DNA from: a phage
Strand: one strand, 5' to 3'
Sequence record: PZ513997.1
DNA length: 40,530 nt
The notes under the pieces are model-generated. The model was not told the DNA's origin. It was given only the letters and a program-made list of their open reading frames with translations, and ran no database searches. The position numbers were made by a program, and so were the translations under genes. The stretch's first letter is position 1; each line of letters starts with the position of its first letter. This document shows positions 3,894-40,284 of the stretch, piece by piece.

Positions 3894-4032
3894 TACATCA
3901 CACCACAACGAGGTAGGAAATAAAGAAGATGAACATTCAGAGCATGAACTTCCCGGTAATTATTAATTGTCTCTTAGCTTCTCATGTAATTCCCTCTGTA
4001 TAACCCGAGGACGCTACGTTACGCTCAGAACC

Positions 4033-4140
4033 TATTTATCTACCCCGATTCTTCAGGAGGGCAGCGGCTTATCGTTCCCGCTAACTTGCTGGCTAGTGCT
4101 CTGCTCCGTGCCTGCGCTTACCGTTACTCGGTTACTATTG
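4033..4140 (+). repeat. copy A of a roughly 100-bp repeated non-coding element (paired with 12950-13050)
   Basis: Roughly 75-80% identity to 12950-13050 by eye, including the shared 11-mer 'tttatctaccc' and core 'cttcagRagggcaRcSgcttatcgt'. Contains a 5-bp stem (agcgg/ccgct, 4063-4082) that is replaced by aaccg/cggtt in copy B, i.e. compensatory changes. Confidence 0.45.
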
Positions 4141-4332
4141 AAGCCTTACCAACCTGTACACGCACAATCATATCTTCTAGGCTGGACATGCAAGCTGTAC
4201 CGCTTTCGTAAGTACCTTCTTCCTTGCTAGATGGGACGTATATTTGGCACTACCTTTCTAATCGCCGCTACTATCTTTAACATTACACTGCCGTTTCTTG
4301 CTATCTATGGCTTAATCATGCTGTTCGCTTAA

Positions 4333-9915: not shown

Positions 9916-11130
9916 ATGAGCAGCATACTGATTTGGGATATTGAAACGCAGAACGTACCTTACTATGGCGGGGTTGCTACACCTTACTGCCCAGATAACT
10001 ACATTGTGGAATCAGGCTTCAGGATTGATAGAACTAATCCAGATGGTACGGTGACGTGCAGTGATGTAGGTAGCGTGCGTTACGAGTCGCGGGAGGAGTT
10101 CATCTCAGCACCTAGTAGTCAGTGGTTGCCTATTCAGGACGATACTTGGTTAATGGTAATGCATAACGCCGCATATGAGATTAGCTGGGCGTTGACGTTT
10201 GCTAGGGAAGAGTTTGAAGCATTCCTGAAACGGGGAGGGCGCGTATTCGATACAATGCAAGGCGAGTACATTGCCTCAGACTTCCAAAACCTTTACCCAT
10301 CATTAGATGAGACGGCTCCTAAGTACGGCGGCAGCCACAAGGTTGACGGCGTTAAACTGCTATGGCAGCAGGGCGTGTTAACAGCAGATATTGACCCTGT
10401 ACTGCTGCATGAGTATCTAACAGGGCCAGAAGGTGATATCGTAAACACAGCGTTATGCTTCTACGGGCAGTGTGCAGTGTTCGCTGAGCGTGGGCAGATG
10501 CCTATGGTCTGGGAAAGGATGGATAGTGTACTGGCCTTAGCCTACTGCGAGTTCAACGGTGTGTACGTAGACATGCCTACAGCCAGAGCTAACCAGAAGG
10601 AGCAGGAGGACGCTATAGCAGAGCTGAAGCAGACGCTGCAAGGCTTCTTACCTGAACTGCCTGAGGGATTTGAGTTCAACTGGAACAGCGGTTATCATAT
10701 GAGTGCGTTGGTGTACGGCGGTACGGTTAAGTACAAGTGCAAGGTCCCGTATGACCCGCCAAAGTTTGTAAAGTTCGATGCCTACCTGGCCGATGTTAAG
10801 GGTACTCAGCAATACATAGATGTTAATGATTGGCAAGATAGCTGGACGTACAGCCGTGAAGTGTTTAAGTCTGGACGTAATAAAGGTCTGCCCAAAGTTT
10901 ACAAGGTGGAAAGTTCAGAGCAGTCTATGAAGTGGGGTGAGCGCCTGTATAAGTTCGAAGGGCTTGTGCACATCCAAGACCTACCAGCAGTATTGCAAGA
11001 GAAGTACGCAGAGCGCGGAGAGTTCCGAGGTGCTCAGACATTGGCAGATGGTACACCTGTGTTCAGTACAGGGACTGATGCTATGAAAGAACTGGCTAAC
11101 TATTTTATTGGGATGGAAGAGAATGAGTAA
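9916..11130 (+). CDS. DNA polymerase, N-terminal part (3'-5' exonuclease domain)
   Basis: 404 aa. Exo I motif 'ILIWDIETQN'. Followed in frame by the polymerase-domain ORF. Confidence 0.8.
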   Translation: MSSILIWDIETQNVPYYGGVATPYCPDNYIVESGFRIDRTNPDGTVTCSDVGSVRYESREEFISAPSSQWLPIQDDTWLMVMHNAAYEISWALTFAREEFEAFLKRGGRVFDTMQGEYIASDFQNLYPSLDETAPKYGGSHKVDGVKLLWQQGVLTADIDPVLLHEYLTGPEGDIVNTALCFYGQCAVFAERGQMPMVWERMDSVLALAYCEFNGVYVDMPTARANQKEQEDAIAELKQTLQGFLPELPEGFEFNWNSGYHMSALVYGGTVKYKCKVPYDPPKFVKFDAYLADVKGTQQYIDVNDWQDSWTYSREVFKSGRNKGLPKVYKVESSEQSMKWGERLYKFEGLVHIQDLPAVLQEKYAERGEFRGAQTLADGTPVFSTGTDAMKELANYFIGMEENE

Positions 11131-12285
11131 ATGAGTAACAAGGCTTCGGAGTTCTTCAAGGCATACAGTGAGATGACCTTGCGTGAGAAAGATTTAGGCT
11201 TCTATGAGAAGAAGGAATTTAACAAGGACGGTAGCCTGCGTAAGACTACAGGTATGCTTCCGTATGTAATCCCTCAGAAGGAAGACGGCAGCGGCATCAT
11301 TCATCACAGATTGAATCACTGCTCAACCACGACCGGACGACTATCAGCATCTAACCCGAATATGCAGCAGTTGCCGCGTGAATCTAAGGTTAAGCAGATT
11401 CTGCGTAGTCGTTACGGTGAGCAAGGTATGATTGCTCAGTGTGACTACTCAGCTATGGAAGTTGTAATGGGCTGTGTAATAACAGGTGATAAGAAACTAC
11501 TATCCTTGCTTGAAGCTGGTACAGATATGCACTGCTATCGTTTAGCATTCCAAGAGGGTATGCCTTATGAAGAAGTCTACGAGCTTTGCCATAACCCGGA
11601 TGCACCTAACCATAAGGAATGGAAGAAGAAACGAACAGCAATCAAAACCTTCAGCTTCGCAGCGCAGTATGGAGCTTCCGCTAAAGGACTGGCGTTCGCC
11701 TCTGGTGCCAGCCTGAAGGACGCTGAGAAGTTCTTAGCTAACGAAGAAGCCCTGTTCCCTGAATCTATTAAGTACCGTGATGTAATTGCAGCAGAGGTAA
11801 ATCGTACAGCACTGTTAGAGCCTATGCGCCGCGAGCAATCAGATGATGGTAGCTGGCGTATCTATCGGGAAGGCTATTTTACTGCTCCTTGTGGTACTCG
11901 TTACCGCTTCCGTCAGAAACCTGTATGGCGTGAAGGTAAGCAGGTCATGGACTTTAAACCTACAGAGATGGCTAACTATCCATTTCAAGGTTCAGGTTCT
12001 CTGCTTATGCTTATTGCGATGGGTATGATTCTGCGCGCAGGATTAGCTACGGATTGGGGTAACGGTAGTTGGTGCTTGTTAGCAACTGTACATGACTCCG
12101 TATATTGTGACTGTAAAGATGAGTCAACGGCGAGGGAAGTAGGTCAATTAATTAAGAAATGTATGGAAGGTGCAAGAGATAGAATGCTGCAACTTTGGCC
12201 TAACTTCGGAATACTACAGGACGTTAAATTCCCTGCCGAGTGTGGTATTGGTAAATCATTTAAAGAGGAGCAGGTACTTGGCTAA
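11131..12285 (+). CDS. DNA polymerase, C-terminal part (family A polymerase domain)
   Basis: 384 aa. Motif A 'CDYSAMEVV', motif B 'RTAIKTFSFAAQYGAS', motif C 'VHDSVYCDC'. Confidence 0.85.
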   Translation: MSNKASEFFKAYSEMTLREKDLGFYEKKEFNKDGSLRKTTGMLPYVIPQKEDGSGIIHHRLNHCSTTTGRLSASNPNMQQLPRESKVKQILRSRYGEQGMIAQCDYSAMEVVMGCVITGDKKLLSLLEAGTDMHCYRLAFQEGMPYEEVYELCHNPDAPNHKEWKKKRTAIKTFSFAAQYGASAKGLAFASGASLKDAEKFLANEEALFPESIKYRDVIAAEVNRTALLEPMRREQSDDGSWRIYREGYFTAPCGTRYRFRQKPVWREGKQVMDFKPTEMANYPFQGSGSLLMLIAMGMILRAGLATDWGNGSWCLLATVHDSVYCDCKDESTAREVGQLIKKCMEGARDRMLQLWPNFGILQDVKFPAECGIGKSFKEEQVLG

Positions 12286-12825: not shown

Positions 12826-12949
12826 ATGCTTGCTGACGCTACTGACCGTTTCCGGTTGGCTCCCTGCCTCGTCGATGTGTGTACTATACGGAAAGCATCC
12901 CTGCTTGTCAACAGCTATTTATAAGTGTACGGGAGGAACCGTTCAGTCT

Positions 12950-13050
12950 CGTTTTATCTACCCAGAGACTTCAGAAGGGCAACCGCTTATCGTCCTCGGT
13001 TAACGTCTTGCTATGTGGCACATCTTACTTACTTCGTTACTGCTTGTCAA
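12950..13050 (+). repeat. copy B of the roughly 100-bp repeated non-coding element (paired with 4033-4140)
   Basis: See copy A. Lies in the 366-bp non-coding-looking island 12826-13191 downstream of the HNH gene. Stem aaccg/cggtt at 12981-13001. Confidence 0.45.
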
Positions 13051-13191
13051 TCTCTTTCTTAAATGATTCTTACTTTCATCTACTACCTCCTATTAATAAA
13101 GTTAAGGCTGCAATCTCTGAAGACTGCATCACTAACCCTACTTAAGTTAGCGAGTCTTATTTCTCCTAGACTCTCATCTGCATCACACTGA

Positions 13192-13380
13192 ATGAAAGTA
13201 AGAATCATCAATCACGATGCTTATGGTCCTTTCTTAACTGATACATGTAAGGAACTGTACGCAGTAGGTACAGTGCATGAAGTACAAGATTTCTTCCCTG
13301 ACACGGGGGAGGTTATCTTAGGGTATGAAGATGAAGGATTTACCTTTGATCCATCAGAGTATGAAGTTGTGGAGGAGTAG
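13192..13380 (+). CDS. small acidic hypothetical protein
   Basis: 62 aa, strongly acidic ('...FDPSEYEVVEE'). Immediately upstream of the pentapeptide-repeat gene. Confidence 0.35.
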   Translation: MKVRIINHDAYGPFLTDTCKELYAVGTVHEVQDFFPDTGEVILGYEDEGFTFDPSEYEVVEE

Positions 13381-13902
13381 ATGAACTATTTAGATATCTG
13401 CGAGAAGTACAATGTAGGAAGCCTGCGCGACGCTAACCTGCGCGACGCTGACCTGTACGGCGCTAACCTGTACGGCGCTGACCTGCGCGACGCTAACCTG
13501 TACGGCGCTAACCTGTGCGGCGCTGACCTGCGCGACGCTAACCTGTACGGCGCTAACCTGTGCGGCGCTGACCTGCGCGGCGCTAACCTGCGCGGCGCTA
13601 ACCTGCGCGGCGCTAACCTGTACGGCGCTAACCTGCGCGGCGCTAACCTGCGCCTAACCTGCGCGGCGCTAACCTGTACGGCGCTAACCTGCGCGGCGCT
13701 AACCTGCGCGGCGCTAACCTGTGCGGCGCTAACCTGTGCGGCGCTAACCTGCGCGGCGCTAACCTGCGCGGCGCTAACCTGTACGGCGCTAACCTGCGCG
13801 ACGCTAACCTGCGCGACGCTGACCTGTGCGGCGCTGACCTGCGCGACGCTGACCTGTGCGGCGCTAACCTGCGCGGCGCTGACCTGCATGGGACTGACTT
13901 GA
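13381..13902 (+). CDS. pentapeptide-repeat protein (Qnr/MfpA-type fold), reading frame disrupted
   Basis: First 90 codons encode perfect A(N/D)LxG pentapeptides ('[30 protein letters not shown]...'). At 13651-13661 one 15-nt unit is 11 nt, shifting the called frame into 'LTCAALTC...'. The pentapeptide frame continues to a TAG at 13935-13937 ('...[19 protein letters not shown]'). Confidence 0.6.
13426..13886 (+). repeat. 15-bp tandem repeat array (about 31 units, one truncated to 11 bp)
   Basis: Units of form 'cgcgRcgctRacctg', head to tail with no spacers. This is the coding repeat of the pentapeptide-repeat gene. Truncated unit at 13651-13661. Confidence 0.85.
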
Positions 13903-29832: not shown

Positions 29833-32523
29833 ATGCCGATTAATCCGCAGCGTCAGGGGCTTAACTTAAGTCCTGTACAATTACAAGCTACACAGCAGAA
29901 CTTTCAAACAGGTATTGGTGCAGCAGCTGTAGATGAATCAGGTCAGGCGCGTAGTGCTGCTATCAGTAAGTTCCTTAGTGATGCTGTAGGCGGCTTCCAA
30001 GAACAGGCTCAAGTATACGGTGCTAAGGCAGCGGTACAAGGTGCTCTAGATGCTCAGAATGCTGTTAATACAGCAGCCGAGAAGGATGAGCGTGTAAAAC
30101 AGCAGAACTTCCTATTACGTGACTCCTACGAGTCTGGGTATGTATCTGCCGCAGTAAGTCGTGAGCTAACTGATTGGCGTACATCTGCACTGCAACGCGC
30201 ACAGGAAGCAGCGGCTAATGGCCTATCTGACGATGAGTTCAGATTGCAGGAGCAGGAGAGTACTGCTAAGTTCTCAGACCAACTAAGCAAGTGGCTTCCT
30301 TCACTGGATAAGCAGGCTGCTATAGCTACGCTTGAACAGGTACGTACATCCAGTGCAGCGAACTTCACAGCATTTCAAGAGAACCGTGCTAAGGTTGCAC
30401 GCGCTAAAGCTGATACTACTCTGGACCAGAACCTGACAGCCTCGGGGCAAGAGTTCTTTACTCGTGTACAGGAAGGTAACGTTGCAGCGGCTGACTTAGC
30501 TATCGTCTCTGGTATGGGTGCTGTACTTGGCGCTAATCATCTGGATAAGGATGACAAGATTGCTAAGGTTAAGGACTACCTTGTTAGCGTAGCTCAGAAC
30601 ACAGATGACCCTTTGGTTATCGACCGCCTTCAGAAGATTGCTACTGAGCAGCTAGGCATTAACTCCGTAGACGTTAACAAGGCACTGCTGTCTGAGTTTA
30701 AACGCGCTGGTAATCAGATGGAAGCATCTGTGCGCTTTAATATCGCTGACCAGCTAGAGTCCCTTAAAGGTGCATCTCCTGAGCAGCAGGAAGCTACATT
30801 AGCCCGCATTCGTTCAGATGTACAACGTTACGGACAACTGGGCGTATTAGGTGCAGGTACTCAGCTCGACATCTGGGCTAGTGCTAGTAAGGTACGTGAT
30901 GAGGCTGCTGATAAGTATGCGTTCCAAGTAGCGCTTGATACTAAGCAACCGTCAGCAGTACTAGCAGGCATGTACGGGGGGGATGTAGACAAGGCCCGTA
31001 AGGCTATTGAAAATAACTTCCCAGATGACCCTACAGGTAACGCTAACTTGTTACAGTATGGTAAGACTGCTAAAGATGCATTCATCGTACAGCGTGCGCA
31101 TGAACGTACTTCTAAGTTAATGGCAGATACCTTAGCCTCTCTGGACAGTCTAGGTGAGGACGGCACTGTATCAGCAGCTAACAACGCAGCTATTGCGTCT
31201 TGGGTGCAGTTCTACCAATCCGGCGGTGACTTAGACCGCGTAAGTCTTAGCTCTGCTGTCCCTGAAGAGTACCGTGGTATTATCCAACGTGCTGCTGCTC
31301 AAGGTCAGTCTAACGCCAGTAATATCATTCTGGATGATGTACGTCGCCTTGCACGCAATAAGGCTAGCGGTCGTTACGATAACCTCCCAGCTAATCCCCC
31401 TGAAGCTGCTATTGATGCAGAGTCTACAGCTAACTGGTTCAGCTTCGGCGATACTGCTGATGCTCAACGTACAGAAGGCCGTGTAGCATTGCAGGAAGAA
31501 TACAAAGCGCTTTACCGCTCTAACCCTGAGCTGCTTGTTGGTAAATCCCCGGAGGATATTAACACGCTTCTTAAGGGGAATATCCAATCTCGTAAGATTG
31601 AGGTAGAAGTAGCAGGTAAGCCACGTCACGTATATCTTCCGGCAGGTACTAAGATTCAGGACTTCATGGGTTCTTACCGAGGTGACGCTGAGCAGTTCCG
31701 TACTGCGTTAAGCCAGCAGATTCAGGTTAGCGTAGATGCCGTAGCAGACCCTTCTAAGGTAGACCGTGTAATCGTCCAAGCTGGTACAGCTGGTGCTCAG
31801 GCTCAGAATCTTACAGCTACTGTTATTACTACCGATGGTATCATGCAGAACATTAGCATTGATAACGAGCAGGTACAGCAGCTAGCACAGCAAGGTTATA
31901 ATGAAGCCTTAGCAGGCGGTATCAAGATTGGCGAACAGGCTATAGGCTCACGTCCTGCTACCTTCTGGGATGCAGACAACGGTAGGACTATTAGCTTGAA
32001 CGTTAACGGTAAGAACAGCGTAGGACTTCCTCCTGCTGTGTATTCTGATATCATTGCTACTACTGCCCAGTTCGAAGGATTCCGCGCTACTAAAGCTAAG
32101 GGTTCTGTGGGCTTCGGTCTGCATGATAACTCTGGACTCCCTGTACCTGATAAGCTGACTCCTGAGCAAGGTGTAGAGTTATTGAAAGGTGCTATGGAGA
32201 AGCAGTACATTCCAGCAGTGCAGAAGCAGCTGAAAGGGATTACTCAAGACCCTAGCGCTTTGAAAGTACTGGTTGACTTGAACTATCATGGCGGTAACGG
32301 CAGCTCTATGCCTGTAGCAGATGTTCTGCGTAAGCTCAAGGATGCTAATAAGTCTCCTGTAGGTTATGCTAATAATAACGCTGATAGCTTTGATACTCAG
32401 GCTGTAGTAGGGTTGAACGTACTGAAACAACAGCCAGCTTATAAACAGGCTCAGGCTAGTCGTAAGAAGTACCTAGAGACTAACTACTGGCAAGCAGTGC
32501 AAGCAGTCCGTTTAGGTCAGTAA
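29833..32523 (+). CDS. internal virion protein, gp15-like
   Basis: 896 aa, Ala/Gln-rich and predicted helical, in the gp15 position. Confidence 0.55.
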   Translation: MPINPQRQGLNLSPVQLQATQQNFQTGIGAAAVDESGQARSAAISKFLSDAVGGFQEQAQVYGAKAAVQGALDAQNAVNTAAEKDERVKQQNFLLRDSYESGYVSAAVSRELTDWRTSALQRAQEAAANGLSDDEFRLQEQESTAKFSDQLSKWLPSLDKQAAIATLEQVRTSSAANFTAFQENRAKVARAKADTTLDQNLTASGQEFFTRVQEGNVAAADLAIVSGMGAVLGANHLDKDDKIAKVKDYLVSVAQNTDDPLVIDRLQKIATEQLGINSVDVNKALLSEFKRAGNQMEASVRFNIADQLESLKGASPEQQEATLARIRSDVQRYGQLGVLGAGTQLDIWASASKVRDEAADKYAFQVALDTKQPSAVLAGMYGGDVDKARKAIENNFPDDPTGNANLLQYGKTAKDAFIVQRAHERTSKLMADTLASLDSLGEDGTVSAANNAAIASWVQFYQSGGDLDRVSLSSAVPEEYRGIIQRAAAQGQSNASNIILDDVRRLARNKASGRYDNLPANPPEAAIDAESTANWFSFGDTADAQRTEGRVALQEEYKALYRSNPELLVGKSPEDINTLLKGNIQSRKIEVEVAGKPRHVYLPAGTKIQDFMGSYRGDAEQFRTALSQQIQVSVDAVADPSKVDRVIVQAGTAGAQAQNLTATVITTDGIMQNISIDNEQVQQLAQQGYNEALAGGIKIGEQAIGSRPATFWDADNGRTISLNVNGKNSVGLPPAVYSDIIATTAQFEGFRATKAKGSVGFGLHDNSGLPVPDKLTPEQGVELLKGAMEKQYIPAVQKQLKGITQDPSALKVLVDLNYHGGNGSSMPVADVLRKLKDANKSPVGYANNNADSFDTQAVVGLNVLKQQPAYKQAQASRKKYLETNYWQAVQAVRLGQ

Positions 32524-39516: not shown

Positions 39517-39699
39517 ATGGCAATTGCAGCAGCAACTTTGGCACAGAAGACTGAACTTCAACGTCAACTGAATATTCTGGCTAAGGACATTTACCAGATT
39601 CTTACCCAGCCTTTGGATGCAGTGTCAGTAGGCCCGACCTTTGATGCTAAGATTCCGGCACTAGAAGCAGCTATCGCAGCTGTTAAAGCAGCAGCATAA
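39517..39699 (+). CDS. hypothetical protein
   Basis: 60 aa, Ala-rich helical ORF. Confidence 0.3.
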   Translation: MAIAAATLAQKTELQRQLNILAKDIYQILTQPLDAVSVGPTFDAKIPALEAAIAAVKAAA

Positions 39700-40098
39700 A
39701 TGATTCGTGCAGCCGCTGGGTTAGTACTCGTTACGGCGCTTACAGGATGCTCAGCGGCTTCTGCACTATCAGGATTAGTCGGCACTAAGCCAGACCTGAC
39801 AGTGCAGGCTGGGGCTGAGAATACTAAGCAGACCGTAGGTTTGAACAGTAGATCCGACTCCAGCACGGATACAACAATCAAAGATTCCAATGTAGGTACT
39901 CTAGACACTTCTACAAAGAAGCAGTCAGTTACTACTGGAACTATCAATACAGAGCGTGTACAGGTTGTTAATAATGACAGTACAAGCATTATACTAGCAG
40001 GGTTGGCGGGTGCAGCGGTTCCAATCGCAATCCTCATCATTATCCTGCTTTTCCGCAAGCTCGGAAGGAAGGGTGACGTAGATGAGTCTACCAATTAG
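39700..40098 (+). CDS. outer-membrane lipoprotein with C-terminal transmembrane helix; candidate unimolecular spanin
   Basis: 132 aa. N-terminus 'MIRAAAGLVLVTALTGC' is a lipoprotein signal with lipobox L-T-G-C. Ser/Thr-rich middle region, then a hydrophobic helix 'LAGLAGAAVPIAILIIILLF' and basic tail 'RKLGRKGD'. Topology and size match phage T1 gp11-type u-spanins. Confidence 0.5.
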   Translation: MIRAAAGLVLVTALTGCSAASALSGLVGTKPDLTVQAGAENTKQTVGLNSRSDSSTDTTIKDSNVGTLDTSTKKQSVTTGTINTERVQVVNNDSTSIILAGLAGAAVPIAILIIILLFRKLGRKGDVDESTN

Positions 40099-40284
40099 AT
40101 GGGTGGTGGATGGGTGGCTGATATCATGTCTTGGCAATGGGGCACTATCTCTTTTATTGTAGGTACTGTAGTAGCGGTACTAACGTTTCTTTGGAATGCC
40201 TACTATAAACGCAAGGAGTACTTGCTGAAAGAGAAAGCATTACAGAAAGGCTTAGAGTACTACGAGTTCAAGAATAAACCATAA
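40099..40284 (+). CDS. small membrane protein, holin or pinholin candidate
   Basis: 61 aa. One clear hydrophobic helix 'ISFIVGTVVAVLTFLW' followed by a highly charged C-terminus. Adjacent to the spanin candidate. Confidence 0.4.
   Translation: MGGGWVADIMSWQWGTISFIVGTVVAVLTFLWNAYYKRKEYLLKEKALQKGLEYYEFKNKP

Follow-up and report, generated by a model that had tools for sequence, protein, structure and literature searches.

The prototype of the unimolecular spanins (u-spanins) is T1 gp11, which was reportedly described as such by Summer et al. in 2007. It corresponds to protein YP_003934.1, encoded at 43581–43982 of NC_005833.1. T1 gene 11 complements the lambda RzRz1 lysis defect, and the T1 u-spanin family has 28 members, in which KP34, NTUH-K2044-K1-1, F19 and phiKDA1 are placed together with T1 (Kongari et al. 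2018, PMC6139136). T1-type u-spanins have thus already been reported both in T1-like siphophages and in KP34-like podophages, and nearly all members of the family are accompanied by a pinholin and a SAR endolysin (Kongari et al. 2018, PMC6139136). None of the u-spanins has a periplasmic Cys, and the JPred pattern of the family is a short helix in the periplasmic region followed by four or more β strands (Kongari et al. 2018, PMC6139136).

The gene described here is located at 39700–40098 on the + strand of the window, by which we mean the whole stretch of 40,530 nucleotides that was analysed. We conclude that its product is very probably a T1 gp11-family unimolecular spanin, which would carry out the last lysis step of Escherichia phage vB_EcoP_PAS7 (PAS7 below); the function is assigned by homology.

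Relationship to T1 gp11 and gene context in PAS7

The first-pass annotation had proposed a T1 gp11-type u-spanin from the architecture of the protein, and sequence comparisons support this assignment. BLASTP aligns the protein with T1 gp11 over residues 11–130 (122/132) at 42% identity and 61% positives (E 1e-27), and with gp54 of Klebsiella phage KP34 over 128 residues at 64% identity (E 1e-52). Kongari et al. 2018 (PMC6139136) required members of a family to share 40% identity or more across 40% or more of the length, and both comparisons lie above this threshold. The protein and T1 gp11 also both match phrog_1804 ('Rz-like spanin') from end to end, with E values of 6.8e-40 and 9.7e-45 respectively. 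Among the features of the family, the following are present: a lipobox Cys, no Asp at +2, a Cys-free periplasmic domain, a predicted C-terminal TMD, and a lysis cassette. Because the protein is a clear relative of the tested T1 gp11 and has already been annotated as a spanin, we regard the gene as an ordinary one: it is already known, as a member of a catalogued family and as an annotated gene in GenBank.

Relatives are numerous. A tblastn search with the spanin gave matches in 1027 phage records, mostly from Klebsiella and Escherichia podophages and T1-like siphophages; among the matches listed, most of those that are annotated are named spanin, Rz-like spanin or U-spanin. In a large protein collection, 534 proteins match the spanin.

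The window region is 99% identical to PAS7 (OQ921331.1), a phage of the Autographiviridae, Slopekvirinae, whose host is E. coli O103. The window does not represent a natural stretch of contiguous DNA, but consists of 64 coding sequences joined end to end. Each of the 64 ORFs runs from start codon to stop codon on the + strand, and together they cover positions 1–40530 exactly, without gaps. Compared to PAS7, the intergenic spacers are gone and the gene overlaps have been resolved, with the bases common to the overlaps duplicated; the pieces at 3967–4230 and 12826–13193 are inverted, and the first three genes are in reverse order. The large terminase is 570 aa long in the window, 37 aa shorter than the 607 aa of the GenBank annotation. 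As a result of this concatenation the holin next to the spanin is cut short and the lysis genes are dispersed. Promoters, ribosome-binding sites, terminators and gene order are unreadable from the window. We therefore read the context of the spanin gene from the native PAS7 record. The PAS7 paper (PMC11522302) does not discuss the spanin or the holin.

In native PAS7, the start of the spanin gene overlaps the stop of an upstream 60-aa ORF (TAATG), and the overlapping A has been duplicated in the window. The overlap suggests translational coupling of the two genes. The 60-aa ORF, which lies directly upstream of the spanin gene in the window also (39517–39699), is Ala-rich, has no TM segment, and corresponds to phrog_7375, of unknown function; P64441 has a hypothetical ORF of equal length in this position. 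The 3' end of the spanin gene overlaps the start of the holin gene by 17 nt, and the gene for a SAR-type lysozyme is located 1.6 kb downstream of the spanin. The holin and endolysin genes are separated by two others, for a hypothetical protein and a tail fibre adaptor. In P64441 and KP34, spanin, holin and endolysin follow one another directly in that order.

The holin is a P21 S-type pinholin (Pfam PF04971, E 8.3e-8, above the cut-off; phrog_20 holin, E 4.7e-18). In the window it is 61 aa long (40099–40284, + strand) and begins at an internal Met, whereas the native gene encodes 82 aa (OQ921331.1, 38427–38675). The window version therefore lacks 21 N-terminal residues, and with them most of the first TMD, which is weakly hydrophobic. 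The endolysin (1444–1983, + strand) is 179 aa long and belongs to the T4-lysozyme family (Pfam PF00959, E 1.8e-26; phrog_7 endolysin). Its N-terminus, KIKAALAGSSLLGASLFAVI, is weakly hydrophobic and rich in Gly, Ala and Ser, and is followed by E28-8-D37-5-T43. Together, this N-terminus and the E-8-D-5-T spacing form what we take to be the SAR endolysin layout, as in the P21 R-type enzymes. In the PAS7 lysis set the u-spanin is combined with a P21-type pinholin and a SAR endolysin, which are the usual partners of the family.

We note a separate feature of the window, a tandem repeat at 13422–13887 within 13381–13902 (about 10867–11375 in PAS7), which consists of approximately 31 copies of the 15-bp unit CCTGCGCGGCGCTAA. 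On the + strand, the first half reads as a classic pentapeptide-repeat protein; from there on the repeat is read in a different register (LTCAA...), a change that points to either a frameshift or an error in sequencing. GenBank labels the opposite strand of the repeat 'modular polyketide synthase', which looks like a misannotation.

Predicted architecture and conservation of the spanin

The single 132-aa protein claimed in the first-pass annotation is confirmed as an ORF with an ATG start and a stop codon at 39700–40098 (+). Its translation is MIRAAAGLVLVTALTGCSAASALSGLVGTKPDLTVQAGAENTKQTVGLNSRSDSSTDTTIKDSNVGTLDTSTKKQSVTTGTINTERVQVVNNDSTSIILAGLAGAAVPIAILIIILLFRKLGRKGDVDESTN, a 100% match to WMX18827.1 in the PAS7 record, where the identical protein is labelled "putative spanin". 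The topology was derived using a regex pattern and a Kyte–Doolittle hydropathy script, and is a prediction only. It consists of a lipoprotein signal peptide, a periplasmic domain, a C-terminal TM helix, and a short cytoplasmic tail.

The signal peptide, residues 1–17 (39700–39750), has the sequence MIRAAAGLVLVTALTG followed by C17, and ends in the lipobox LTGC (L14-T15-G16-C17; 39739–39750) to which attention had already been drawn in the first-pass annotation. A PROSITE-PS51257-like rule recognises it, with Arg3 in the n-region, the uncharged hydrophobic stretch GLVLVTA, LTGC, and Ser at +2. Cys17 is predicted to be lipoylated and to form residue 1 of the mature spanin. With Ser18 at +2, the Asp that acts as a Lol-avoidance signal is absent, and sorting to the outer membrane by Lol is therefore predicted.

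The periplasmic domain, delimited by its composition and by alignment with T1 gp11 and the podophage homologues, comprises residues 18–96 (79 aa; 39751–39987). It is Cys-free, and 54% of its residues are Ser, Thr, Asn, Gln or Gly. The family motifs that it has in common with T1 gp11 are SALxGL, P-D, Q-x-GAENTKQ and DSN(V/I)G-x-(L/I)D-x-S-x-KK. If extended, approximately 79 residues could plausibly cross the periplasm.

The predicted C-terminal TM helix, residues 97–118 (IILAGLAGAAVPIAILIIILLF; 39988–40053), has a 19-residue Kyte–Doolittle maximum of 2.83. It is preceded by NNDSTS, which is acidic or neutral, and followed by RKLGRK, with four basic residues within seven positions. The short tail that ends the protein, RKLGRKGDVDESTN (40054–40095), is basic near the membrane, as seen from the sequence and from the podophage alignment. 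On the positive-inside rule, NNDSTS before the helix and RKLGRKGDVDESTN after it predict an N-out/C-in orientation with the C-terminus in the cytoplasm, in agreement with the C-terminal helix and basic cytoplasmic tail described in the first-pass annotation. In the podophage subfamily the helix begins with ILAGLAGAAVP (residues 97–107; 39988–40020), a Gly/Ala-rich stretch of the small-xxx-small type.

The two anchors are strongly conserved. Both the lipobox and the C-terminal TMD are kept in all of the 120 homologues listed (out of 534). Among these 120, the lipobox is LTGC in 113, LSGC in five and LAGC in two, and the family-aligned Cys is followed by Ser in every one, directly in 113 and after the second Cys of a tandem lipobox in seven. 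Residues L14, G16, C17, S18, S21-A22-L23, P31 and Q36-x-GAENTKQ are among the positions invariant in the alignment, T1 gp11 included, and R119 and K124 are invariant among the podophage homologues. The seven homologues with an extra Cys all have it in the tandem lipobox (LTGCLAGC), and have no periplasmic Cys. These are close homologues (P0017, P0020, P0022–P0024, P0026 and P0027), with sequences such as LTGC-LAGC-S, and it is the second Cys that aligns with Cys17 of the window spanin.

AlphaFold2, run with an alignment of 18 sequences, gave a low-confidence model (mean pLDDT 50.5, pTM 0.19). The best-scored part is a helix at residues 96–121. Helices are modelled at the signal peptide and the TMD alone; residues 16–95 have no assigned secondary structure, and the periplasmic part therefore contains neither β strands nor predicted helices in this low-confidence model. 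A sequence profile search of the PDB found no related solved structure, the matches being insignificant and composition-driven ones to Thr-rich insect antifreeze proteins (E 0.44). The Pfam scan assigned the spanin to no family, and gave no spanin, SlyB or Rick_17kDa match; a sub-threshold match to Tad_C (E 0.082) was rejected.

It is conceivable, but in our judgement rather improbable, that in the podophage subfamily the periplasmic domain is a flexible Ser/Thr-rich tether, disordered as a monomer, which gains β structure only on oligomerisation after loss of the murein, and that this oligomerisation is driven by LAGLAGAA, the Gly/Ala-rich stretch with which the TMD begins and which T1 gp11 does not have. 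The structure-free, low-confidence AlphaFold2 model is compatible with a disordered tether, and is no proof of it. As to how a β-rich or disordered tether might fuse two membranes, the locus gives no special handle, and no u-spanin structure has been solved.

Alternative readings and the search for a second component

A protein with these features might also be read as an ordinary phage lipoprotein, such as a superinfection exclusion protein of the Cor or Llp type, in which the hydrophobic C-terminus is incidental. JGI does call some of the homologues 'outer membrane lipoprotein SlyB', a name that the ILAGLAGAAVP stretch may explain, and the Gly/Ala-rich start of the TMD, LAGLAGAA, is reminiscent of glycine-zipper lipoproteins. 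However, the negative Pfam result for SlyB and Rick_17kDa argues against this reading, as does the retention of the C-terminal TMD by every listed homologue. The homology to T1 gp11, for which spanin function has been demonstrated, is full-length, and the gene adjoins and overlaps that of the holin. A lipoprotein of this kind would, moreover, leave the phage without any spanin. We consider it very unlikely.

The conservation described above bears on a second possibility, in which the gene is a mere remnant, dispensable or in decay, and the outer membrane is broken by some other factor, for example a cationic 'disruptin' peptide like phiKT gp28. Such a peptide is reported to be used by the spanin-less podophage phiKT (bioRxiv 10.1101/515445), and small ORFs of unknown function flank the spanin gene. 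Against this, the ORF is intact, and the anchors and many periplasmic residues are invariant down to approximately 63% identity, a pattern indicative of purifying selection. By hydropathy the flanking 60-aa protein is not membrane-active, nor is it visibly cationic. We attach hardly any probability to a relic.

A further spanin component was sought by scanning for lipoboxes in all six frames and from all start codons, in both the window and native PAS7, and by scanning all annotated PAS7 CDSs for TM segments. Within 39700–40098, the alternative frames of the + strand contain no ORF of at least 20 aa with a lipobox, in line with the statement in the first-pass annotation that no embedded Rz1-like ORF was apparent. 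The scan of the window gave five ORF entries with a lipobox. Three are antisense, two of these being alternative starts of one ORF, and among the five only 39700–40098 is an ORF in its own right on the coding strand. Being the only entry that is both standalone and on the coding strand, the spanin lipobox is not a chance finding. No other credible lipobox ORF was found in or near the lysis genes of the window or of native PAS7.

The remaining one of the five entries is a 30-aa alternative-frame ORF at 31793–31885 (+), inside the gene for an 896-aa internal virion protein, which has the lipobox-like N-terminus MLRLRILQLLLLLPMVSC. This is probably a chance occurrence: no more than 12 residues would be left in the mature form, and the ORF lies well away from the lysis genes. 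The antisense entries likewise look like chance hits.

Among the annotated PAS7 proteins, none is laid out like an i-spanin, with an N-terminal TMD followed by a long periplasmic domain. Apart from the spanin and a weak internal segment in a DNA polymerase CDS, TM-like character is confined to the holin, the SAR endolysin and two early peptides, which are 34 and 42 aa long. The first-pass annotation had named a separate Rz/Rz1 pair in the native genome as the observation that would count against a u-spanin; the lipobox and TM scans found no such pair in the PAS7 genome, and no other spanin candidate. Annotation does often miss o-spanin genes (196/528; Kongari et al. 2018, PMC6139136), but that our protein is only half of a two-component spanin, with an overlooked partner that is either an Rz1-like o-spanin (embedded or separate) or an Rz-like i-spanin, is the least probable reading of all, given the results of the six-frame lipobox scan in and near the lysis genes and of the search for i-spanin-like proteins among the annotated CDSs, and the presence of both anchors on the spanin already.

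Proposed role in lysis and comparison with known spanins

The mechanism proposed here for the PAS7 u-spanin combines what is established about the biogenesis of lipoproteins with what has been published on T1 gp11. The precursor would be exported by Sec and processed at Cys17 by Lgt, LspA and Lnt, with lipidation of the Cys and cleavage of the signal peptide by signal peptidase II. The lipidated N-terminus would then be carried to the outer membrane by Lol, while the C-terminal TMD (97–118) would remain in the inner membrane and the basic tail would face the cytoplasm. Every spanin molecule would thus be threaded through the murein and tether both membranes. At lysis, the P21-type pinholin is expected to depolarise the membrane, which would free the SAR endolysin and lead to degradation of the murein. 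The spanins, no longer confined, could then diffuse, oligomerise and collapse, leading to fusion of the inner and outer membranes and release of virions. Fusion by oligomerisation and collapse is a model (Kongari et al. 2018, PMC6139136; review PMC9636201), for T1 gp11 as well.

In this STEC-infecting phage the gene completes an ordinary lysis set, together with the pinholin and the SAR endolysin; beyond correct annotation it has little import.

Like lambda Rz/Rz1, the PAS7 spanin would presumably link the inner and outer membranes across the murein and disrupt the outer membrane after the endolysin has acted. Rz/Rz1 is made up of two polypeptides, whereas the PAS7 spanin is one, and lacks an N-terminal TMD, coiled-coil helices and periplasmic Cys; the Pfam scan detected no sequence similarity between them.

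The likeness to T1 gp11 is much closer. At 132 and 133 aa respectively, the two proteins are of nearly equal length. They agree in the L-[ST]-G-C lipobox followed by Ser at +2, in the periplasmic domain, which has about 80 residues and no Cys, and in the C-terminal TMD with a basic tail behind it. Three motifs recur in both: CS-x-x-SALSGL, Q-x-GAENTKQ and DSN(V/I)G. The lipobox aligns with LSGC of T1, although the signal peptide of the PAS7 spanin is five residues shorter, and the TMD of T1 gp11 is without the Gly/Ala-rich start (ILAGLAGAAVP) found in PAS7. The phages themselves differ: PAS7 is a T7-like podovirus (Slopekvirinae) and T1 is a T1-like siphovirus. The gene order differs also. In PAS7 the spanin is first in the lysis cluster, upstream of the holin gene and overlapping it, whereas in T1 it is last (holin, endolysin, spanin).

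KP34 gp54 and the other Drulisvirus and Slopekvirinae proteins named 'Rz-like spanin' or 'U-spanin' have the same architecture as the PAS7 spanin, and the KP34 gene occupies the same position in its genome, after the large terminase and some small ORFs and before the holin. The differences from KP34 and P64441 consist of the two genes that separate holin from endolysin in PAS7, and are otherwise ones of sequence divergence.
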